A stretch of 64,000 bases of DNA from Fibrobacteria bacterium (GTDB lineage Bacteria > Fibrobacterota > Fibrobacteria > UBA11236): contig JBGTHM010000023.1 of assembly GCA_041746255.1 (NCBI GenBank), positions 15,640 through 79,639 on the forward strand, in the 5' to 3' direction. The notes below the pieces were generated by a model. It was given only the letters and a program-made list of their open reading frames with translations. It searched no databases and was not told the DNA's origin. The position numbers were made by a program, and so were the translations under genes. Shown piece by piece: positions 7,558-64,000 of this stretch (position 1 is the first letter of the stretch; every line of letters begins with the position of its first letter).

Positions 7558-8238
7558 ATGCAGCCGAAAATCCTGATTGTTGAAGACGAGGCCGACTTAC
7601 GCGAGCTGCTCCTCTATAATCTGGAAAATGAAGGTTACCGGGTGGAGGCCGCCCGAACCGGCCTGGAGGGAATAGCCCTGGCAGAAACCTTCCGCCCCGA
7701 CTTGGTTCTGCTGGACCTGATGCTGCCGGATATCGCAGGTGAAGAGGTGTGCCGCCGCATGAGAAACAACGCCGCGTTCCACAACACCGCCATTCTCATG
7801 CTCACCGCCAAAGCCGCCGAAACGGATAGAATATTGGGCTTCCGGCGCGGCGCCGACGATTATGTCACCAAACCATTTTCCACCAAGGAATTGCTGGAAC
7901 GCATCAAAGCCATCCTCCGACGCACCAAAGGCGAAAGCAACCTTTTCCGCCTCCGCGATTTGCAGCTCGACTTTGATAGACATCAAACCCGCATCCACAA
8001 TCGCCCCATTAATCTTACCTCCCAAGAAATGGCCCTATTCGCTTACCTGGTGCAAATGCGGGGCAAAGTGGTCACACGCGACCGGTTGCTGGAAGAAGTA
8101 TGGGGTCACGGCGCGGATGTCGATTCCCGGGCCATCGATGCCAGTATCAAACGGCTGCGCGCCAAACTGGAAGACTATCGGGACATTATTGAAACCGTCA
8201 AAGGTGTGGGCTATAAACTCAATACGGAAATGGATTAA
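7558..8238 (+). CDS. OmpR/PhoB-family response regulator
   Basis: Receiver (ILIVEDE, LLDLMLP, GADDYVTKPF) plus winged helix (LLEEVWG...IETVKGVGY). Confidence 0.95.
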   Translation: MQPKILIVEDEADLRELLLYNLENEGYRVEAARTGLEGIALAETFRPDLVLLDLMLPDIAGEEVCRRMRNNAAFHNTAILMLTAKAAETDRILGFRRGADDYVTKPFSTKELLERIKAILRRTKGESNLFRLRDLQLDFDRHQTRIHNRPINLTSQEMALFAYLVQMRGKVVTRDRLLEEVWGHGADVDSRAIDASIKRLRAKLEDYRDIIETVKGVGYKLNTEMD

Positions 8239-8241
8239 ACC

Positions 8242-8964
8242 ATGCTTCCCAACACTCCGACCTATCTCCATATCCTGTTTCTGCTGCTCGTTTTGTGTAC
8301 GGCCGCTTATGTGATTATCGGTTTGCGCAGCGTCGAAACCAGAATGCCCAATGGCCTGCGCAATAGCACCTATCCCCTGACCATCGCAGCCCTCTTGATA
8401 GCTTGGCTGGCCGTAACCGGGTATTTGGCGTGGAGCGGTTTTATCGCCCGCTTCGACACCCTCCCGCCCCGCTTCGCCATCGGCCCTTTGGGCGGGTCCT
8501 TGGCACTCTTATATGTGATTTTTTCACGCAATGTCGGCAAAAGGTTGGACGTCATGCCCCCGGCTTGGCTCGTCAATCTCCAAACCATGCGAGTAGGGGT
8601 GGAGTTGACTTTTTTCGGCCTGTTCGTAGCAGGAGTGGGGCCCCGGCTCATGACTTTCGAAGGACGGAATTTCGACATCCTAATCGGGTTGACCGCGCCG
8701 GTGGCAGCCTATTTCGGATTTCGAGGAACTCGTTGGCGAATAGGCACAATGCTATTGTGGAATTTGGCTGGAATTATGATTCTCTCTTTTACCATCGGCC
8801 ATGGAATTTTCTCGGCGCCCACCGCATTCCAAAGGATTTCCACCGACCCACCCAATATTTTCATGGGTTATTTTCCTTATTTCTGGGTTCCCGCCTTCTT
8901 GGCACCACTGGCGCTTATCTTGCACGCGGCCTCGATTCGCCAACTTCTGCGCAAGTCCCGTTGA
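8242..8964 (+). CDS. multi-pass membrane protein of unknown function
   Basis: About 7 hydrophobic segments; LQTMRVGVE and GRNFDIL motifs. Confidence 0.8.
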   Translation: MLPNTPTYLHILFLLLVLCTAAYVIIGLRSVETRMPNGLRNSTYPLTIAALLIAWLAVTGYLAWSGFIARFDTLPPRFAIGPLGGSLALLYVIFSRNVGKRLDVMPPAWLVNLQTMRVGVELTFFGLFVAGVGPRLMTFEGRNFDILIGLTAPVAAYFGFRGTRWRIGTMLLWNLAGIMILSFTIGHGIFSAPTAFQRISTDPPNIFMGYFPYFWVPAFLAPLALILHAASIRQLLRKSR

Positions 8965-9022
8965 AAGGCGACCATCCCCCCATTTTATACTTTTCCTAAC
9001 AGCAAGCATAAAGGAGCGATAA

Positions 9023-9445
9023 ATGGCGGATTCTCAGGCCCTGGCGACCAGCCTTGATTCCCTAAAGTCGGCTTTGGAGAAGGCTAATGCCTTGAAGAGT
9101 CTCGGTAAAGAATCCCAATCGATCGAGCAAAGAATGCTGGTCGCAGAACTCATCGAAAAGCTGTTGGAAACCAAAGAGAAAATTCTTCAGGCAAAAGAAG
9201 AACTGCTATCGATACCGGCGGGAAGCGGAGCCGAGGCGGCGCAAGCATCCATTGAGTTCGACGGCCTTATCTACTGGAAAGTGCTTCCCACCGGAAAAAA
9301 AGAAGGTCCGTTCTGCCAAAGATGCCAGGATTTGGAGCAACGCTGGATTCGGCTCCAGGAAGAAAGCCAGACGCAAGACTTCGGCACCACGCTGAGGAAG
9401 TTCTATTCCTGTAAAGTCTGTAAAACCACTTATGATGTCAGGTAG
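9023..9445 (+). CDS. hypothetical coiled-coil protein with C-terminal zinc ribbon
   Basis: AAGGAG RBS; GPFCQRC...YSCKVC. Confidence 0.75.
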   Translation: MADSQALATSLDSLKSALEKANALKSLGKESQSIEQRMLVAELIEKLLETKEKILQAKEELLSIPAGSGAEAAQASIEFDGLIYWKVLPTGKKEGPFCQRCQDLEQRWIRLQEESQTQDFGTTLRKFYSCKVCKTTYDVR

Positions 9446-47985: not shown

Positions 47986-48084
47986 ACTCCGCAAAACCAG
48001 CTTACCGAAATCGCGGTAATTCGAATTTAAATACGTATTCGGTTCGATCGAACGGATTTTTTAGCCGCATTGACGCCGATTTTA

Positions 48085-48147
48085 ATGGACGCCTTTTTGG
48101 ATTGGTTGAACGGCGAGACCAAAACAGACGCAGTATTAAAAGTGGTT
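48085..48147 (+). pseudogene. 63-nt fragment of a Fic/DUF4172 gene
   Basis: 51/63 nt identical to 57898-57960; MDAFLDWLNGETKTDAVLKVV versus MDVFLDWLNGETRTDAVLKAA. Confidence 0.8.
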
Positions 48148-48346
48148 CCTGATGTATCTCCCAGAAAACATTTTCTTTGACAAAGAGGTCTACACCCCGT
48201 AAATACCCCGTACCCAAGCATGTTATTCTTCCGTCCCGGAATTAATTTCTTAAAGAATGTGCTTATAGTCCTACAACCGTGATTTTAACGGGCCTGGTGA
48301 AGGTTATTCTTCACCAAAAATCGGGCCTTATCAAAAAAGAGGCATT

Positions 48347-50020
48347 ATGAATCCAATTTTAGTCGCACTGCTTTTACTCATACCGTATCAAGCCGGAGCA
48401 GCGGCAAAGGTCACCATTGATCCTCAAGATGAGAAGTGGGTTATAAGTAAGTACCTGATCGGAATGCATGCGGTATATACCACCGAACCGGATGCCGTCT
48501 ATGAGGACGACAGTCTCGCCCACTGGGCTAAAAAAGTCGGAGTCGGGGTCTTTCGCTATCCCGGTGGAACAGTTCTGCATCATTGGAACTGGGAAAAACC
48601 AAGTGGTACCTGGTCCTGGACGGGAAGTGCGCCCGAAAAAGACTGGATGAGCCTGGATGAATACCTGCATTTTTGTAAAGTCAGCGGCGCCACTCCGCTA
48701 GTGGGAGTCAATTACAACCATTATTATCAAACCAACGAAGTCGACAGAAGCGCCACGAGCGCCGCGGGGCTGGTCAAATATGTGAAGGATGCTGGATTTC
48801 CCGGGGCGTTCTACTATATCGGAAACGAGCTGGATAGGGTCTTAGGCCCAGCACACAAGGGTTTAGGCGGTATTAAAAATGCCGGACCGGTTTTCGTGAA
48901 ACATTCCAAAGCCATGAAAGCGGTGGACCCCGATATCAAGGTTCTGTATAACTGGAATTTTGAAACGCCCGCATCGCTTAAGGAATGGATGGCTCTGGTT
49001 GGCGACGCTGCCGACGGCGTGGATTTTCATGAAAAATGGCCCGATGAAAGAACCGAAGGCAGCTATGAAATGTGGAAGAAAGAAGTCCCCTTGGTATGGA
49101 ACTACCCACCGGATAAACTGAAAAACATCGGCTTGAATAAGGCGCCTACCTGGCGCGAGAGAATCGAAATGTTAAGGAAAGCGGCGGCGGAAATTGGCCG
49201 GCCCGACATGCTGATGACCAATATCGAGTATGGAATCGGCCCGGACAATACCGGGTTCAATCGATTCACCATGAGCCTCATGTTAATCGACTACCTCCAA
49301 GAACTTTTCATTGCGGGCTATGATATGGGGTCCCATTGGTCCAATACCCGGGCGAAGTTCGATGACGGCATGCTTTTGAACGCGGGAAACAAATGGCGTA
49401 TGAATCCTGTCGGATATGGCTGGGAATTCCTCGGAAGAGCGCAGGGGAAAACCATGATCGGCTTCGAGGCCGACAATAAATTCGTATACGGGTTTGCGGC
49501 CAAGGATTCTTCCGGGGAATACCAGGTATATTTGATGAATAAAACCGAGTCCGTGCAGCCGCTCTCGCTTTCTTTCAAGGGGTCTCCGGCCGACATGGCC
49601 TCCTGGACATCCAGCGCCAAGACCCTGATGGATGGCGATGGCCACTGGGGACTGGTTAACAACCTTGACATAACCTTTAATGCGTCGACTCAATTATTTC
49701 AAGCTACGCTTCCGGCTATGTCCTATAACCAAATACTTTTCAAAAAAGAAAATTCTAGCGCCATAAATGCGTCATCCGGCCTATCACAGAGCCAAGGCGG
49801 CATATTCCTGGTGAGTAAAGCCGGGAAAATCATCATTGAGGCGCCCTCTTCCTCAAAGGTGACCCTTACGACGCTTGCGGGAAAGGTGGTCTTCGAAAAA
49901 TATCTGAAGGAGGCCGGCTCACTGGAAATCGGAAAAGAGAGCGTCGCACGGGGTTTCTACAACGTAAATGTGGTCTCGGGTAGCCAAAGCGTTTCTGAGA
50001 AATCAGTATGGATAAAATAA
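48347..50020 (+). CDS. secreted clan GH-A glycoside hydrolase (GH51/GH79-like), copy 1
   Basis: FRYPGG, YYIGNE, NIEY motifs; T9SS-like tail. Confidence 0.72.
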   Translation: MNPILVALLLLIPYQAGAAAKVTIDPQDEKWVISKYLIGMHAVYTTEPDAVYEDDSLAHWAKKVGVGVFRYPGGTVLHHWNWEKPSGTWSWTGSAPEKDWMSLDEYLHFCKVSGATPLVGVNYNHYYQTNEVDRSATSAAGLVKYVKDAGFPGAFYYIGNELDRVLGPAHKGLGGIKNAGPVFVKHSKAMKAVDPDIKVLYNWNFETPASLKEWMALVGDAADGVDFHEKWPDERTEGSYEMWKKEVPLVWNYPPDKLKNIGLNKAPTWRERIEMLRKAAAEIGRPDMLMTNIEYGIGPDNTGFNRFTMSLMLIDYLQELFIAGYDMGSHWSNTRAKFDDGMLLNAGNKWRMNPVGYGWEFLGRAQGKTMIGFEADNKFVYGFAAKDSSGEYQVYLMNKTESVQPLSLSFKGSPADMASWTSSAKTLMDGDGHWGLVNNLDITFNASTQLFQATLPAMSYNQILFKKENSSAINASSGLSQSQGGIFLVSKAGKIIIEAPSSSKVTLTTLAGKVVFEKYLKEAGSLEIGKESVARGFYNVNVVSGSQSVSEKSVWIK

Positions 50021-51009
50021 TGACTCATCCACGCAGAATAATTCCAGCCGCTACTTATAAGGACGCCGCGATTCCAGGACAAATTTTTTTGCCGATTTTA
50101 ATCGGCGCTTTCGCCTTGGTTTCGCTTTGGAATACAGGAAACGCCCAGGTACCGGTTCTGGTTCTGGATTTTAATGAACAAACCGGCGACACGGCCCGCG
50201 ACTTGAGTGGGAACGGATTCCACGGCGAACTCGCCAGCGGGGCGGAATGGAATTCCATGGGTCACTTTGACGGTGGAGTCAAATTCAACGGTAAGAACGG
50301 CTGGGTGCGGATTGTCTATGACAGTTTATTGAATCCCTCGCAGTACACGATAATGGCTTGGGTTTATTCGACTGGAAATGGAAATGATAAGGAGAGGCGC
50401 GAAATACTTGAAAATCCCGGTTCGTACTGGATGAACATCCGTCAGAAAGTAAATACCCTAAGGGTGGGCGGGTTTTTCGGAAAAAATAGCGAGTGGGTTT
50501 ATGTGGATTCCAAAGAAGCCATCCCCAATAACAAGTGGACCCATACGGCCTCCACCTGCGATGGAACAAGATTGCGCAGCTATATAAACGGGGTGCTGGC
50601 GGCGGATACGGCCATACCCGGAGAACTTGGCGTCAAATTCGCCCGCGATTTATTCGTTGGTCTAAAGAAAGACGAAATTGCCAAATATAACGGCGCCTGG
50701 TTCGAAGGAACCATCGATGACGTGCGGGTTTATTCCGGAGCCATGACGCAAGCTCAAATCCAGGCGGCCATGAAAACTCCCTTTCAGTTGACCAGCGCCC
50801 TCAAGTATCCGGCAAATAGGCTCAAAGAAGGGAACCGGATGGGCATATTCCCGCCCAATTCGAATGGACTATTTGATGCTATGGGTAGGACTAGCGGGCC
50901 AGGGATCGGCCGCCAGGCCTACCAGCAGGAATATGGGGTATTTTATAGGTTACCGGAACAACCCGTCCAACCCAAGAACAGCTCTGCAAATGTTTTGGAT
51001 GGATTTTGA
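50020..51009 (+). CDS. secreted LamG/concanavalin-like domain protein
   Basis: DLSGNG.HG, YTIMAWV, WTHTA, YING, FEGTIDDVRVY. Confidence 0.85.
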   Translation: MTHPRRIIPAATYKDAAIPGQIFLPILIGAFALVSLWNTGNAQVPVLVLDFNEQTGDTARDLSGNGFHGELASGAEWNSMGHFDGGVKFNGKNGWVRIVYDSLLNPSQYTIMAWVYSTGNGNDKERREILENPGSYWMNIRQKVNTLRVGGFFGKNSEWVYVDSKEAIPNNKWTHTASTCDGTRLRSYINGVLAADTAIPGELGVKFARDLFVGLKKDEIAKYNGAWFEGTIDDVRVYSGAMTQAQIQAAMKTPFQLTSALKYPANRLKEGNRMGIFPPNSNGLFDAMGRTSGPGIGRQAYQQEYGVFYRLPEQPVQPKNSSANVLDGF

Positions 51010-51058
51010 AATGGATTTTTCCAATCCCTAGGCTTAACCCGTTCCAAAGAGAAAAATC

Positions 51059-52702
51059 ATGAAACTGACATTGCTTGCCCTATCATTGATTTTCTCGTCT
51101 CAAGCTTATGCGGCGGTGAATGTCAAGATCGATCCGAAAAACGAGAAATGGACCATCAGTAAATACCTGATTGGAATGCATGCCGTGTATTCCACCGAGC
51201 CGGATGTAGTCTATAAAGGCGACAGCTTGGCACGTTGGGCGAAAAAAGTGGGCGTCGGAGTTTTTCGCTATCCCGGCGGTACGATCTTGCACCATTGGAA
51301 TTGGGAAAAGCCAAGCGGTCTATGGCAATGGGACGGAAATGCGCCGGAAGAGAACTGGATGAGCCTGGATGAGTACCTGCATTTTTGCAAGGTCAGCGGC
51401 GCGACTCCCCTGGTAGGCGTCAATTACAACCATTATTACCCGGACAGCGTCGACTATAGCGCGGCTAGCGCCGCACGGCTGGTCAAGTATGTAAAAGACA
51501 AAGGTTTTCCCGGCGCCTTTTATTACATCGGAAACGAAATGGACCGGCATGTTTACCTGAAAGGGATAGGTAATTCCGCACGAGTATTCAGACAGCATTC
51601 GCTGGCTATGAAAAAGGTGGATCCGGCCATCAAGGTCCTTTACAACTGGAATTTCGAAACCGCCAGCACTCTGAAAAGATTTATGGAAATCGCCGGTGAC
51701 GCCGCCGATGGCGTGGATTTTCATGAAAAATGGCCCGATGAAAGGACTCCGGGAAGTTATGAAATGTGGAAGAAAGAAGTTCCGTTGATATGGCACTTTG
51801 CCAATGGAGGTCATAATAACCCGACCTGGAGGGAGAGAATTCAGATTTTACGGCAAGCGGCTAAGGAAATTGGCCGTCCCGACATGCTCATGGCCAATAT
51901 CGAATACGGTATCGCTCCGGAAAGTTCCGAAGGATTCAATCGGTTCACCATGAGCTTGATGTTGATCGATTATCTTCAGGAGTTATTCATCGCCAACTAC
52001 GATTTGGGCGCCCATTGGTCCAACACCCGAGCCAAATACGACGACGGCATGCTCATGAACGCGGGAAATAAATGGCGTATGAATCCGGTCGGTTTCGGCT
52101 GGGAATTTCTCGGCAGGGCCCAGGGAAAAACCATGATCGGTTTCGAGTCCGACAATAAATTCGTTTACGGGTTTGCGGCCAAGGACGCAACCGACGAATT
52201 CCAGCTCTACTTGATCAATAAAACAGAATCGCCTCAGCCGCTCACCATTTCTTTCCAGAATGCTCCGGCAGACATCGCTACATGGACCTCCGGCGCCAAA
52301 ACCCTGGTAGACGGCGATAATCACTGGGGCGTGGTCAACAGCCTGAACATATCCTATGATGCCGCGAAAGGAGTTTTCCAAGCCACTATTCCACCGATTT
52401 CTTATAACCAAATTCTATTTAACAAGAGCGGCGCCACCGCAATCGAAACCTCGGCACCCCCGCTAAAAAGTTATGGTGGCTTATCGGTGGTAAAAAACGC
52501 CGGTAAAATATTAATCCATGGCGCTCCCGCTTCCCAGGTTACCGTAACTTCACTTTCCGGCCAAGTCGTTTTTCAGAAACGACTGGAAAAATCCGGGACT
52601 TTGGAATTAGGAAAAGAGAGCCTTGGGCATGGGGTATTTACCGTAAGCGTTGTCTCCGGCGAGCATAGCGTCTCCGAGAAAATCGTATTGCAGGAAAATT
52701 GA
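51059..52702 (+). CDS. secreted clan GH-A glycoside hydrolase, copy 2
   Basis: Long peptide blocks identical to 48347..50020. Confidence 0.72.
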   Translation: MKLTLLALSLIFSSQAYAAVNVKIDPKNEKWTISKYLIGMHAVYSTEPDVVYKGDSLARWAKKVGVGVFRYPGGTILHHWNWEKPSGLWQWDGNAPEENWMSLDEYLHFCKVSGATPLVGVNYNHYYPDSVDYSAASAARLVKYVKDKGFPGAFYYIGNEMDRHVYLKGIGNSARVFRQHSLAMKKVDPAIKVLYNWNFETASTLKRFMEIAGDAADGVDFHEKWPDERTPGSYEMWKKEVPLIWHFANGGHNNPTWRERIQILRQAAKEIGRPDMLMANIEYGIAPESSEGFNRFTMSLMLIDYLQELFIANYDLGAHWSNTRAKYDDGMLMNAGNKWRMNPVGFGWEFLGRAQGKTMIGFESDNKFVYGFAAKDATDEFQLYLINKTESPQPLTISFQNAPADIATWTSGAKTLVDGDNHWGVVNSLNISYDAAKGVFQATIPPISYNQILFNKSGATAIETSAPPLKSYGGLSVVKNAGKILIHGAPASQVTVTSLSGQVVFQKRLEKSGTLELGKESLGHGVFTVSVVSGEHSVSEKIVLQEN

Positions 52703-57378: not shown

Positions 57379-58476
57379 ATGACCAAATACATTTATCAGT
57401 ATGACCAATGGCCCAATCTCAAATGGGATGATCAAGAAATTCAAGTGATTCTAGGCAAAGTCCGTCATTTCCAAGGAAAAATTTCCGGCCAGATGGAGGC
57501 TATGGGATTTTCCCAAAAAGAGGAAACTATGCTTTCCACCTTAACTCTTGATGTCCTTAAATCGTCCGAAATTGAAGGTGAGATATTAAACCAAGAGCAG
57601 GTTCGCTCTTCCATTGCGAGACGATTAGGATTGGATTTCGCCGGGATGGTCAGCGCTGATAGAAGCGTGGAAGGCGTTGTTGAAATGATGCTGGATGCGA
57701 CGCAAAGGTACAACCAACCTCTCGAACATGAGCGGATATTCGGATGGCACGCGGCATTATTTCCCACCGGCTGGAGTGGTATGCACAGGATTGGGACTGG
57801 TCGTTATCGCAATGGCGATATGCAAATAGTTTCCGGGCCAATGGGGAGCGAGAAAGTCCATTACCAGGCTCCACCTCCTGAAATTGTCAAACAGGAAATG
57901 GATGTTTTTTTGGATTGGTTAAACGGGGAAACCAGGACGGATGCAGTATTAAAAGCGGCTATCGCCCACTTTTGGTTCATTATTATCCATCCTTTTGAGG
58001 ACGGCAATGGACGCATTGCAAGAGCGATATCCGATATGTTACTTGCGCGCTCAGAGGAGAGTTCCCAAAGATTTTACAGCCTATCAAATCAAATATTGAC
58101 GGAGAAAAAGATATACTACGAAATTCTACAAAGAGTCCAACATAGCAAGGGTGACATAACCGAATGGTTGGTTTGGTTCCTGAACTGTTTATATCGGGCC
58201 CTGGCTTCAACTGAGGAGACCTTAAATAAAGTCCTGTATAAGGCGGAATTTTGGGATAAACACAGAGAAACCATTTTAAACGGTAGACAACGATTGATGC
58301 TGAACAAAATGTTGGATGGATTTGATGGAAATCTGCAATCTTCAAAATGGGCGAAAATAACGAAGTGTTCCGTAGATACCGCGCTAAGGGATATTAAGGA
58401 TTTGATCGAAAAGGGAGTTTTGCAACAAAAAGAATCCGGGGGAAGAAGTACAAATTATGAATTGACTGGAAAATGA
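57379..58476 (+). CDS. Fic-family protein with N-terminal DUF4172 and C-terminal HTH
   Basis: SSEIEGE inhibitory motif; HPFEDGNGRIAR; DTALRDI...GGRSTNY. Confidence 0.95.
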   Translation: MTKYIYQYDQWPNLKWDDQEIQVILGKVRHFQGKISGQMEAMGFSQKEETMLSTLTLDVLKSSEIEGEILNQEQVRSSIARRLGLDFAGMVSADRSVEGVVEMMLDATQRYNQPLEHERIFGWHAALFPTGWSGMHRIGTGRYRNGDMQIVSGPMGSEKVHYQAPPPEIVKQEMDVFLDWLNGETRTDAVLKAAIAHFWFIIIHPFEDGNGRIARAISDMLLARSEESSQRFYSLSNQILTEKKIYYEILQRVQHSKGDITEWLVWFLNCLYRALASTEETLNKVLYKAEFWDKHRETILNGRQRLMLNKMLDGFDGNLQSSKWAKITKCSVDTALRDIKDLIEKGVLQQKESGGRSTNYELTGK

Positions 58477-59928: not shown

Positions 59929-60713
59929 CAGCAGTTAGCCATACCCTTACTCAAAATAGAACCTTCATTACTGCCTAAAAAAACAAACCAATCTTTTGCT
60001 GCGCAAAAAAACAGGTCGGTCGGGCGAAACCGTTTTTACGGAAAAGGCGATATATTGGGACATGATCCAGAACAGCCATTGTTCCCCATTTTCTCTACAT
60101 CCGACTGTTAAGAGTAGGGATGTAACCAGTATATATCCTAGGCCTGCTGCATCCGCAAGTTCCTGGAAAAAGTATGCATAGAAAGACGGATAAATGTATG
60201 CATTTCAGGGATTGCATTCCACCCATCCACATACGTAAATCCAAGCTAGGCGGACGTTAAGGAGAGTTTAATTCAATCCCAACAAAACAACTTCGAGGTT
60301 TATATGGAGTGCACGGCTCCGCCATCCATTTCCGGGCACCAACAGACATAGCCCCCTCAAATCGTGATTTCAAGTAAATGGTACCGTATCCTGGATGAAA
60401 CTGGGCTCAAAAAAGGGGGAAAAACCAAAAATTGAAGGTTAGGCGGTTCTCTGGTTTCAGGCGGGGGTTAATTACCTTTTGTGATCTATGGCGAAATTTT
60501 GTGCGTCTTTGATGCCAAAGGACGAACAAATCTACGCCATAGATCTAGTTGAACAAAGCCGCTACGCGGCAGTTTATCGTGCCAACTGTCCCACTTTGGC
60601 TCTTTTAATCAATGCCTTTTGGCTGAAATAGCCATCCTCTATTCGAAGCTATTTTCCGAATAACCCGAATCAGTTAAAATTTTCTGTTCACCTTCACCAC
60701 AAGGAGAACAGAC

Positions 60714-61586
60714 ATGACACTCTTAAGACAGCAATTCACTCAAGCGCTGGAGCTCCGTGGCTTCTCGCCCCATACCATTAATAATTATATCCTCGCTGTT
60801 GCCCGCCTCAGCCGGCGCTATGGAAAATCACCTGATACGATCAGTGACCAAGAAGTTCGCGAGCACATCCTCCACCTGAAATCCGAAGGTATCTCCGCAG
60901 CCACTTGCAACTTGCATATGGCGGCCATCAAGTCATTTTTCAAATCATGCCTTCCGGAGCGGCCCAATCCAGTTGGCCTCACCAGCATGAAAGCTCCCAA
61001 GCACCTGCCGGTTGTGCTGAGCTTGGATGAAACCATCCGCCTACTCACCTGCGCGGTCAATCCTAAACACCGGGCGCTTTTGAGCATCATCTACTCGGCC
61101 GGGCTCAGGCTGAGCGAAGCCATACATCTACGACCCGCCGATATTGATAGTCACCGGATGCGCATCCATGTCCGGGAGGGTAAGGGTGGAAAGGATAGGT
61201 ACACGCTGCTTGCCGGACCCGTGCTGGAGACGCTTCGGGAGTATTACCGCTGCTACCGGCCCGAAACCTGGTTGTTCGAAGGACGACACCGGGGCATGCC
61301 GATGAGTCCGCGCAACGTGGATGCGACGCTCAAACGCTGCGCCAGGCGCGCCCGCTTGGGCAAGCGGGTAACGGTGCACACGCTTCGGCACAGCTTCGCT
61401 ACCCATCTTCTGGAAGCCGGGCAGCCTCTGCAGGTTATACAAAGTCTGCTGGGCCACCGGAACATTAAGACGACCACTATCTACACGCACGTGACCGACA
61501 GGATGATGGCGGACCTGCGGAGCCCCCTGGAAGCTTTCACCCTTACCCCGAATCGTGCTAAGGAACAGGGGGCCGAGCATGACTGA
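60714..61586 (+). CDS. tyrosine recombinase/integrase with SAM-like N-terminal domain
   Basis: Complete catalytic set: GLRLSE, GKGGKDR, HTLRH, LGH, TTIYTH; AAGGAG RBS. Confidence 0.95.
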   Translation: MTLLRQQFTQALELRGFSPHTINNYILAVARLSRRYGKSPDTISDQEVREHILHLKSEGISAATCNLHMAAIKSFFKSCLPERPNPVGLTSMKAPKHLPVVLSLDETIRLLTCAVNPKHRALLSIIYSAGLRLSEAIHLRPADIDSHRMRIHVREGKGGKDRYTLLAGPVLETLREYYRCYRPETWLFEGRHRGMPMSPRNVDATLKRCARRARLGKRVTVHTLRHSFATHLLEAGQPLQVIQSLLGHRNIKTTTIYTHVTDRMMADLRSPLEAFTLTPNRAKEQGAEHD

Positions 61587-62805
61587 GAAGATTGCGGAAA
61601 GGAAACGTGGATTGGAAGTGGCGGAAGTCTTCTCGAGGGGCATGGCAGCCTATGCCAAAAACCACGGACCGCTTCCTCCCGCACATTGGAAGGTGGTGAA
61701 CGCCCTGGAACGCTGCCGCACGGCCGCAATGGGCGGGCACTCCTACAAGTGCGGGAACTGCGATTACGAAAAACAAGTCTACAACTCCTGCCGCAACCGG
61801 CACTGCCCCAAGTGCCAGGGATTGGCCCGGCTCAAGTGGGTGCAGGCAAGGATGGAGGAACTCCTGCCCGTAGAATATTTCCACGTAGTGTTAACCATGC
61901 CGGCCGAGCTCAACGCATTCGCCCTTCGAAACAAGGCGGCGTTCTACGACCTGCTTCAAAAAAGCGTGGCGGATACGCTTCTTTCATTATCGCGCGATCC
62001 GAAGCGCTTGGGTGCGGAGATAGGTTTCATCTCCGTACTGCACACCTGGGGTCAGAACATGATGGACCATCCGCACGTCCACTGCATCGTTCCCGCAGGC
62101 GGCTTGGAGGACGGCGTTCGATGGAAATCCCTCAAGGGCAAGTTTCTATTTCCGTTCAAAGTGATGTCATCGCTGTTCAAGGGCAAAATGTTAAGCGGGT
62201 TCAAACGGGCTGTGGAAAAAGGCGATATCCGCTTCCACGGCCACCTCGAGCAATACACCGACCCGGCACGGTGGAAGGCATATCTCGACGGCTTGTATGC
62301 GAAGAACTGGGTCGCCTACTGCAAGCCACCTTTCGCCGGGGCCGGTCAGGTCCTCAAATACCTAGGCGGTTACACGCACCGCATGGCCATCTCTAACCAC
62401 CGCATTGTCTCCATCGACGAAAACACCGTCCGTTTCAGATGGCGCAGCTATGCCGACGGTGGAAAGACCAAGGTGATGACGCTCGCGCATAAGGAATTCA
62501 TCCGGCGCTTCTTGTTGCATGTACTGCCTAAGGGATTTCAGCGCATCCGGTACTATGGATTCCTTGCCAACTGCAAGCGGAAAAAGGCATTGGGACGCTG
62601 CCGTGAAATCTTGTCTGCCAAGGTAAAGGATCCCGCTCCTGAAAAGGACATGTCCTCCGAAAAAGCCGGACAATGCGATCTTGTTAGCCTGTTCAAGAGT
62701 GTGTTCCACATCGACCTCACTTTTTGTCCAAAGTGCCGTAACAGGACGGTAAGCCCGACCTTCCCTCCGGCTCATGTACGTTACTCAAGAGGTGTTTTCA
62801 GGTGA
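61579..62805 (+). CDS. IS91-family rolling-circle transposase (HUH, Y2)
   Basis: Zn domain CRT...C..C...YNSCRNRHCPKC; LHTWG; HPHVH (HUH); YLGGY (YxxxY); RIRYYGFL; overlaps the integrase stop by 8 nt. Confidence 0.95.
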   Translation: MTEKIAERKRGLEVAEVFSRGMAAYAKNHGPLPPAHWKVVNALERCRTAAMGGHSYKCGNCDYEKQVYNSCRNRHCPKCQGLARLKWVQARMEELLPVEYFHVVLTMPAELNAFALRNKAAFYDLLQKSVADTLLSLSRDPKRLGAEIGFISVLHTWGQNMMDHPHVHCIVPAGGLEDGVRWKSLKGKFLFPFKVMSSLFKGKMLSGFKRAVEKGDIRFHGHLEQYTDPARWKAYLDGLYAKNWVAYCKPPFAGAGQVLKYLGGYTHRMAISNHRIVSIDENTVRFRWRSYADGGKTKVMTLAHKEFIRRFLLHVLPKGFQRIRYYGFLANCKRKKALGRCREILSAKVKDPAPEKDMSSEKAGQCDLVSLFKSVFHIDLTFCPKCRNRTVSPTFPPAHVRYSRGVFR

Positions 62806-63192
62806 GATGATTACTGTCCATGTATGCCAGAACGGGTCCCAAGCTAAAGGGAGGTTTCCATCCTATGCTTGATGGGCTGGAAATGCCATTTTTAAGTGAT
62901 TTTTTAATATTTTTCACAAGATATGAAACGGTCATTTAACCTAATATTCGTGTTTATCCGTCTACAGCCAGGCATCCGCAACGGCCAAAGCCCTCGATCA
63001 AACCCCATAGGGCGGCACCTCACCCCCGCGGCTTCGTTCAACTAAATTATTTCTACAATGCGGCACCAGAAGCGCCTATTTTTGAGCCTGTGGCAGGCAT
63101 TGCAGAAATAATCCTTAACGTTATGCAATGCTTGAGCCAATTTATCAGAATGCGCGCCTAAAACAGAAATCAAAAACTAAATTCAAAATACC

Positions 63193-63696
63193 ATGAATAT
63201 CCAATCTGAAAACTTAACTGATGGAACTATTCAATTAATCCCTCTTAGGGAACAGGATTTTGATGCTCTTTTTTCAGTCGCCTCCGATCCTCTAATTTGG
63301 GAACAGCATCCGAACAGCAACCGGTATCTGAAGGAAGAATTCTTGAAATTCTTCCAAGGGGCGATTGAATCCAAGGGTGCATTCAAAATAATTGACTGCA
63401 AAACTCAGGAGCCCTTGGGCTCAAGTCGGTATTACGATGTAGATATGCAGGAAAAGTCAGTCTTCATTGGATACACTTTCCTTCGGAGGGACAAATGGGG
63501 AGGAAACTACAATGCTCGTTTAAAGGCATTGATGATAAACCATGCCTTTCAATTTGTGAACAAGACCTATTTCCAAATTGCGACTACCAATATGAGATCT
63601 CTTCGGGGCACTGAGAAAATAGGGGCAACAATAGTCGGTACCCAAATTCTTGAAGGAATCGAGCATTTTGTTTTGGAAATGCAAAAGGAAAATTAA
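63193..63696 (+). CDS. GNAT (RimJ/RimL-like) N-acetyltransferase, cassette-like
   Basis: LIPL...DPLIW...IGYTFL...N.RS...EKIGA; visibly more AT-rich than flanking core genes. Confidence 0.88.
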   Translation: MNIQSENLTDGTIQLIPLREQDFDALFSVASDPLIWEQHPNSNRYLKEEFLKFFQGAIESKGAFKIIDCKTQEPLGSSRYYDVDMQEKSVFIGYTFLRRDKWGGNYNARLKALMINHAFQFVNKTYFQIATTNMRSLRGTEKIGATIVGTQILEGIEHFVLEMQKEN

Positions 63697-63736
63697 TACG
63701 GCGCGCTTAAAAATAATTGTGGAGGGCTCAAGCACA

Positions 63737-63988
63737 GCTTACAACAACGCACAGGGTGCTCCGCACGGGACAAGCCCGTGCTCCGGGGCTTCGCCCAAAT
63801 TGGTTTTGGGGTAAGCCCGGCAATTCAAAGGGCATCCTCACGGCGCCCGCTAAGGCGGGCTTGTTCCGGTGCTCCTTTTCATTGCGTGTTGCGGGCGAGC
63901 ATTCTGGGGGTCAAAGACCCCACTCCATGCTCGTCCTCACACATCGGGCTAACCCCAAAACCAACTTCACCCTCCGCTGACGTTATAC
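63737..63988 (+). repeat. about 250-nt branched palindromic attC-like site
   Basis: TACAAC...GTTATAC outer boxes, AGGGTG/CACCCT inner boxes, 20-bp stem 63800-63819/63945-63964, several internal hairpins. Confidence 0.7.
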
Positions 63989-64000
63989 AACATGCTGCCT

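Follow-up and report, generated by a model that had tools for sequence, protein, structure and literature searches.

The locus

The DNA analysed here, called the window below, is a stretch of 64,000 nt from one contig of a Fibrobacteria genome (G000). Near its right-hand end two consecutive units are encoded on the plus strand (Table 1). The first contains an Xer/IntI-like integrase gene and an IS91-family transposase gene and closes with a hairpin site, and the second contains a GNAT acetyltransferase gene followed by the large structured element that is the subject of this report. Only two sites are visible in the window because the contig, like the window, ends 12 nt after this element. Elsewhere in the window, a 2.7-kb stretch is present in two diverged tandem copies, 71-82% identical, at 48331-52231, and a 62-nt match connects 48084-48145 with a Fic-domain gene at 57897-57958.

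Table 1. Features at the right-hand end of the window (window coordinates)
Feature	Position	Strand	Remarks
Cassette-like unit, 2.57 kb	60549-63120	+	Insert-less Xer/IntI-like integrase and IS91-family Y2 transposase
Insert-less Xer/IntI-like integrase	60714-61586	+	Pfam/NCBIfam matches
IS91-family HUH (Y2) transposase	61555-62805	+	NCBIfam 438 bits; overlaps integrase gene by 32 nt
attC-like hairpin site ending the preceding unit	63036-63126	+	91 nt; 16-nt arms 63046-61/63097-112, 94% complementary
Gene cassette (GNAT gene and large attC-type site)	63121-63982	+	862 nt; starts with TT after G63120, ends with G63982
Cargo GNAT acetyltransferase	63193-63696	+	167 aa; Pfam PF13302, E 2e-13
Probable attC-type element	63739-63988		250 nt; R'' 63739-63745 to R' 63982-63988
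R'' box TTACAAC	63739-63745	+	Helix map; AAC 63743-45 pairs with GTT 63982-84
Unpaired spacer, 5' arm	63746-48		A-rich
L stem, 5' arm	63749-63758		Pairs with 63968-63977; 10/10 pairs compensatory in 54 sequences
Hairpin 1 of terminal structure	63763-63781		6/7 pairs changed on both sides
Hairpin 2, GGGC-TTC-GCCC	63786-63796		98% of cells paired; 1 pair with compensatory change
20-bp long-range stem	63800-19 with 63945-64		13/20 pairs compensatory in 16 sequences
Branch A of three-way junction	63820-85		63820-33/63872-85 and 63839-50/63855-65
Branch B of three-way junction	63886-942		63886-902/63927-42 and 63907-10/63918-21; stem with compensatory changes in 9/13 pairs (16 sequences)
L stem, 3' arm	63968-63977		
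Unpaired spacer, 3' arm	63978-81		
R' box GTTATAC	63982-63988	+	Predicted crossover between G63982 and T63983

An earlier note on this DNA had described the element as an oversized, multi-branched attC-like structure, and the parts that it listed are in the sequence: the outer AAC and GTT, the AGGGTG (63753-58)/CACCCT (63968-73) pairing, both small hairpins, and the 20-nt arms with one mismatch, given in the inverted-repeat listing as 23-nt arms (63797-819/63945-967, 91% complementary). Within these arms, GCCCGC-TAAG-GCGGGC was found at 63845-60 and GGGGTC-AAA-GACCCC at 63907-21, and GGGCGAGCAT (63893-902) pairs with ATGCTCGTCC (63927-36) with one G.T. The long-range stem encloses a three-way junction formed by branches A and B. 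The top of the site thereby amounts to about 209 nt in five helices, namely two small hairpins and the 20-bp stem capped by the three-way junction. In the two 7-mer boxes, only the AAC and GTT triplets fit the RYYYAAC/GTTRRRY consensus. The G.T wobble in the branch B stem (63895/63934) is conserved (14 of 16 and 38 of 44 family members); it becomes a C.A mismatch if the other strand is read.

Folding of both strands, a check that the earlier note had proposed, gave structure far beyond chance on each. With RNA parameters the plus strand reaches -148.9 kcal/mol (z -8.32) and the minus strand -149.3 kcal/mol (z -7.00), and 0 of 100 shuffles were as good in either case. DNA parameters give -70.4 (+) and -73.2 (-) kcal/mol, with z of -8.2 and -6.5 against mononucleotide shuffles. 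An open reading frame over the element (63717-63980) was rejected as coding: it matches no Pfam family, and the lengths of the indels between copies are not multiples of three.

A family of large sites with covarying helices

The element is not alone in its genome. Further copies, 69-83% identical, are present on contigs C18, C37, C36, C31 and C67 of G000, and the genome has at least 7 copies in total. Several of them are cut by contig ends, so the repeat evidently breaks the assembly. A covariance model built from 16 copies found large sites in 19 of 31 other genomes of the same taxonomic family, counts that come from mostly fragmented assemblies and from relatives that are non-independent samples. 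By genus, they were found in 15/15 genomes of g4, in the single genome of each of g1, g2, g3 and g6 (1/1 each), and in 0/12 of g5. In a sample of the whole phylum, 9 of 151 genomes (G000 included) carry them, almost all belonging to this taxonomic family; beyond it there was one good match, in a sister family, and one weak match in the phylum sample.

The large size noted earlier also holds for the family: from R'' to R' its members measure 202-288 nt (median 262), and the window copy 250 nt, versus the 55-141 nt that are usual for a whole attC site. AAC and GTT stand exactly at the end columns of the model in 29 of the 37 members having both ends, and the base preceding GTT is a nearly invariant C.

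The consensus structure tested comprises 78 base pairs. In the 16-sequence alignment, 89.7% of the cells are paired, compared with 76.3% in shuffles and 36-48% in slid controls, and 46 of the 78 pairs have changed on both sides; none of 500 shuffles reached any of these measures. RNAalifold, run unaided, recovered the inner helices; 39 of its 66 pairs are compensatory. Among 54 model matches, 88.7% of cells are paired and 64 of the 78 pairs are compensatory, in an alignment that was fitted to the model and hence leans towards its structure. The R-box helix in these 54 sequences has one compensatory pair and 88% of cells paired. One unpublished genome (G021) contributed 1 of the 16 rows of the smaller alignment, 4 of the 54 of the larger one and 2 of the 16 adjacent pairs considered below, and no claim depends on it alone. 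A single-copy sequence, a lack of covarying homologues or identity with a known Rfam RNA were the outcomes that the earlier note had named as speaking against its reading, and none of them was observed: the searches for homologues and for covariation, both proposed there, returned a multi-copy family with extensive compensatory change.

Cassette boundaries and arrays

The limits of the mobile unit can be read from its flanks. Positions 63129-63138, which closely follow the G/TT of the preceding site (63120/21; the slash marks the junction), are the exact reverse complement (10/10) of 63725-63734, which lie just before R''; therefore the GNAT gene and the element form one cassette. In arrays of large sites, the 22 nt starting from the GTT of one site complement the 22 nt leading up to the AAC of the next site, and not those of the same site. 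The median complementarity score is 10.5 for adjacent sites (n=16; 9 of them at 9 or above), as against -2 for a site with itself (n=41) and -2 for all other pairs (n=1967; 95th percentile 5). In three of the 16 adjacent pairs a canonical site intervenes, and the matches of these three are due to common flank families, not to adjacency. The argument is carried by unique flanks, for example those joining 7810 to 9255 in locus L052 and 9443 to 9865 in L050. The large sites lie just downstream of an open reading frame on the same strand and follow one another in same-strand arrays, one gene apart.

A solo cassette in G000 (C36:14264-15122, minus strand) lies outside any array. It starts G/TTG after unrelated DNA and ends in a full site that is broken right after the G (ACG/GAG). 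These ends place the crossover in R' and assign each site, in the manner of integrons, to its upstream gene. The sister genome G001 is without a 2.65-kb stretch that holds this cassette, but the missing stretch also includes another gene, so the empty-site comparison could not fix the exact crossover. Contigs from other sequencing runs with nearly the same core as the window element (4 differences each, over 176 and 227 nt) part from it at 63741-42 and after 63984. The joint of a circular cassette was not seen in contigs of four sequencing runs, and contigs cannot show rare forms.

A copy in G001, 86% identical, has homology starting from R'' with a different upstream cassette. Its interpretation as a crossover at R'' was dropped, because copies within G000 are up to 83% alike and the resemblance is therefore at the level of the family. 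The cassettes beside this copy (L016, G001:C168) contain toxin-antitoxin-like gene pairs with their own promoter-like sequences, as judged by eye.

Alternative explanations

A structured RNA in the 3' untranslated region of the cassette transcript, acting as a stabiliser, a terminator or a small RNA, was among the options of the earlier note and is the least unlikely of the alternatives. It would agree with the position of the element, which is always just downstream of a same-strand open reading frame, with the strong covariation, and with the conservation of the top-strand G.T wobble in 14 of 16 sequences. However, RNA under selection usually shows an excess of G-U over A-C pairs, and here 47 G-U stand against 41 A-C, or 33 against 41 if the one conserved wobble is left out. 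G-U is thus not the commoner type, which speaks for structure at the level of DNA rather than RNA. Moreover, both strands fold equally well. Rfam 15 gave 0 matches at gathering level in the whole window, and an E-value search of 63600-64000 returned chance-level matches only (best 17.3 bits versus a gathering score of 45, E 0.54). No tRNA or tmRNA was found. In a promoter and terminator scan of 62800-64000 the counts were at shuffle level, with nothing on the plus strand inside the element. Finally, this explanation leaves the AAC/GTT ends and the flanks complementary to the neighbouring site unaccounted for. We therefore consider an RNA unlikely as the main explanation, although the element may have a dual role as DNA site and RNA.

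A non-autonomous MITE-like or BIME-like repeat that spreads by transposition and mimics attC ends would also be multi-copy, would break assemblies at contig ends and would contain long inverted repeats. This is very unlikely: the copies differ by compensatory changes without shared conserved termini, they stand in same-strand arrays one gene apart with flanks obeying the cassette rule, and no target-site duplications were seen in the ends read by eye.

An integrase without the IntI insert

In relatives, arrays of large sites are found beside the gene of an IntI-like integrase. In an alignment, the insert of about 40 aa that is specific to IntI is absent from 15 of 15 of these array-type integrases and present in 12 of 12 IntI proteins. 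The scores of the insert-less integrases against TIGR02249 (158-216 bits) fall below the cut-off of 265 in 10 of 10 scanned. In a recombinase tree, obtained by a quick search only and rooted at midpoint, they form a group with IntI to the exclusion of two housekeeping Xer proteins (support 99).

Among 20 insert-less integrase genes in the taxonomic family, 10 have a large site on the same contig no more than 3.1 kb away; 8 of these are co-directional and upstream of the array, and 2 are divergent. Since the contig ends within about 1.5 kb on the array side of 6 of the 20, and 3 are without a site on their contig, linkage could be judged for 11 genes. One more gene, on G001:C60, is accompanied by a variant site, recognised by eye. 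The array on G013:C85 has at least 10 sites over 22 kb. At the level of genomes, 16 have both a large site and an insert-less integrase, and 3 have the site without the integrase; none has the integrase without the site, and 12 have neither. One genome estimated as 99% complete (G003) carries five large sites and two insert-less integrases, and no IntI over the cut-off.

Beside the insert-less genes, at 9 loci examined by eye, a small hairpin is followed by TA/GTT or GGA/GTT and then by the flank of the first cassette. Judged by its sequence, this junction looks like an attI-type site. All three parts of an integron-like platform, namely the insert-less integrase, the array and the first-cassette junction, are accordingly present. 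In a relative from a sister family (G034:C28), the sites that follow have the same box design and are only 80-112 nt long, which points to the large top as an elaboration of this taxonomic family. Among metagenome relatives of the integrase, 3 of 80 loci gave a weak model match with default filters. In loci L155, L178 and L144 the integrases are about 40% identical, and two to four weak matches of 89-163 nt lie upstream on the opposite strand, which suggests that similar platforms exist elsewhere.

The canonical integron in the same genomes

The genome of the window also encodes a canonical integron integrase (G000:C56:27054-28436, minus strand), which scores 374 bits against TIGR02249 (cut-off 265) and has the insert. 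In named genomes its relatives, spread over several phyla, share 33-54% identity. The attI-side junction reads CTT/GTTATGCGGAC, and the contig breaks within the first cassette. In three relatives, the 7 sites in the first kilobases beside IntI are all of the ordinary type, about 130 nt long, and no large sites were found next to IntI in these three.

Sites of the 130-nt family are interleaved with large sites, on the same strand, in 6 loci (L051, L052, L032 and L031, with partial matches in L050 and L049). In these smaller sites the 5' arm (R''-L'') carries the extra, bulged bases in 7 of 7 whose stem could be followed for at least 17 bp; 4 others were uninformative.

An insertion sequence whose left end starts with GATAACGTA has six copies in G000, all at contig ends (C18 end, C37 start, C47, C56 end, C57 and C106). 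Two different large sites are interrupted by it at an identical position, and in the canonical integron one copy sits within the first cassette, 650 bp from intI.

The preceding unit and its IS91-family transposase

The unit that precedes the GNAT cassette begins at a perfect GTTRRRY box (GTTGAAC, 60548), right after a 63-nt hairpin (60483-60545). Between its start GTTGAACAAAGCCGC (60548-62) and its end GCGGCTTCGTTCAAC (63028-42), 14 of 15 positions are complementary. The site that closes it has the boxes R'' GTTCAAC (63036-42, a perfect RYYYAAC) and R' GTTATGC (63120-26); it is single-copy and hence gave no covariation test. With these complementary flanks and perfect boxes, the unit looks like a cassette or an element mimicking one.

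The integrase encoded in this unit is a diverged member of the insert-less group (292 bits, versus 343-491 for the others) and is translationally coupled to the IS91-family transposase, so that it may belong to the IS91 element. The unit was found in 0 of 32 relatives by DNA search, the transposase is single-copy in its own genome, and IS91-type transposases were found in 2 of 20 family relatives at E <= 1e-10, one of them over the cut-off.

These numbers bear on another option of the earlier note, that the large element is a nicking or termination site of the neighbouring HUH (Y2) transposase, or a REP-like HUH substrate. It is hardly credible in spite of the transposase gene 0.9 kb upstream and of a second IS91-family transposase in a cassette array of G004: the element occurs in 19 of 31 relatives and in at least 7 copies in its own genome, so that it does not co-occur with a cognate transposase as an IS91 end (oriIS/terIS) or a REP-type repeat should.

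The G004 case is an observation in its own right. There, an IS91-family transposase gene (321 bits; C17:1978-2970, L044) lies between two canonical attC sites of an array beside IntI, and it is the second occurrence of such a transposase as cassette cargo.

Comparison with known integron sites

Several properties of the large sites are those of attC sites. First, the R''/R' cores carry the conserved AAC and GTT, which the window copy matches by its triplets. Second, the palindrome folds into an R box, an unpaired spacer, A-rich between R'' and L'', and an L box. Third, as in integron cassettes, the bases after G/TT complement the R'' side of the next site.

Other properties differ. In canonical attC sites the extrahelical bases are a G and a T on the bottom strand. 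Such bulged bases lie on the R''-L'' arm (Bouvier et al. 2009, PMC2727003, in the part drawn on here), but the large sites are without extrahelical bases there. In 40 of 41 of them the R'-L' arm equals or exceeds the R''-L'' arm in length. The arm difference, 3' minus 5', is -1 in 1 site, 0 in 11, +1 in 17, +2 in 9, +3 in 2 and +6 in 1, as taken from the model alignment; minimum-energy folds were noisy, and 5 of 18 walked into hairpin 1. A 1x1 mismatch recurs instead of the bulge, and complementarity extends 10-20 nt beyond the R box. The size of the top is likewise outside the described range, which in the available parts of two papers is 20-100 nt (Cury et al. 2016, PMC4889954) or from 3 nt to the branched 65 nt of the VCR (Bouvier et al. 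2009, PMC2727003). Finally, an IntI with the additional domain was not found encoded beside the arrays, since 0 of 12 canonical IntI genes in 20 family genomes share a contig with a large site.

The attC sites of sedentary chromosomal integrons, such as the VCR of Vibrio cholerae, resemble the large sites in their AAC/GTT base, A-rich unpaired R''-L'' spacer, L stem and variable top. In both, there is one site per cassette, the arrays are oriented along a single strand, the next cassette owns the bases after G/TT, and the sites of different cassettes are highly similar within one host lineage. The 65-nt top of the VCR is also branched, according to the same part of PMC2727003. Unlike those sites, the large ones have a five-helix top of conserved sequence and a far greater total length, lack the extra R''-L'' bases, continue pairing past the R box and are linked to an integrase without the IntI insert.

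The DUF1874 motif (Weinberg et al. 2017, PMC5737381) is another multistem conserved structure found in consecutive intergenic regions. In the portion of that paper available, it was proposed as a possible unusual attC, with no integrase at the end of the array. Unlike for the DUF1874 motif, cassette boundaries and an adjacent recombinase can be shown for the large sites. No Rfam family matches the element beyond chance (E up to 10), and thus it represents a family other than the DUF1874 motif.

CALIN elements (Cury et al. 2016, PMC4889954) are also cassette arrays without a recognisable IntI alongside. The accessible part of that study mentions 50 recombinases without the IntI insert near attC sites, judged "not IntI", and four intermediate recombinases with fewer than 3 attC sites each. 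In contrast to what is reported there, 10 of the 20 genes of one insert-less clade are here linked to arrays, and one of these arrays has at least 10 sites. The IntI insert was described as "not fully conserved" in an integron-like subgroup in the consulted portion of Smyshlyaev et al. (2021). In the literature searched, as far as the partial texts extend and apart from supplements, no paper was found on sites of this size or on arrays tied to insert-less integrases.

Interpretation and implications

From the computed structure, covariation, cassette boundaries, arrays and gene linkage, we conclude that the element is very probably the attC-type recombination site of a mobile GNAT cassette in an integron-like array. 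The title of the earlier note and the first of its options, a folded single-stranded DNA recombination site, are thus supported, above all by the complementarity at cassette boundaries, the AAC/GTT ends, the arrays and the covariation without G-U bias. The giant branched site appears to be new, and the case for it as a recombination site is computational.

Which recombinase acts, on which strand, and what the large top does, we infer. A single DNA strand would fold with the AAC/GTT R box at the base, then the asymmetric unpaired spacer, the 10-bp L stem and the top of about 209 nt. Strand exchange between G and TT of the R' box would then excise or insert the cassette. The enzyme is most likely the IntI-like integrase without the IntI-specific insert that lies beside such arrays in relatives. 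The large sites may be substrates of the canonical IntI as well, whose gene lies in another part of the genome, because both types of site are mixed in the same arrays.

More tentatively, two integron systems quite possibly exist side by side and exchange cassettes: one with IntI and bulged sites of about 130 nt, the other with the insert-less integrase and unbulged sites with a five-helix top of about 210 nt. As part of the same tentative reading, the integrase of the second lineage never had, or lost, the IntI insert. The large top may stand in for the contact that the IntI insert makes with the extrahelical bases, and so stabilise the synapse or select the strand.

Both integron theory and the usual search programs presuppose hairpin sites of restricted size and an insert-bearing integrase that grips bulged bases. 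The default upper site limit of IntegronFinder is 200 nt. In one cited paper, as far as its text was available, the limit was raised to 300. Branched-top sites of 250-290 nt would be missed by the standard search, and therefore such arrays would be invisible or appear cut up. If the insert-less integrase does recombine the large sites, the insert and the bulged bases would not be indispensable for cassette recombination. In that case, the step from an Xer-like to an integron integrase would become testable with natural partners from one genome, and the large site would be a rare example of a single-stranded DNA fold that is functional and contains several covarying helices.
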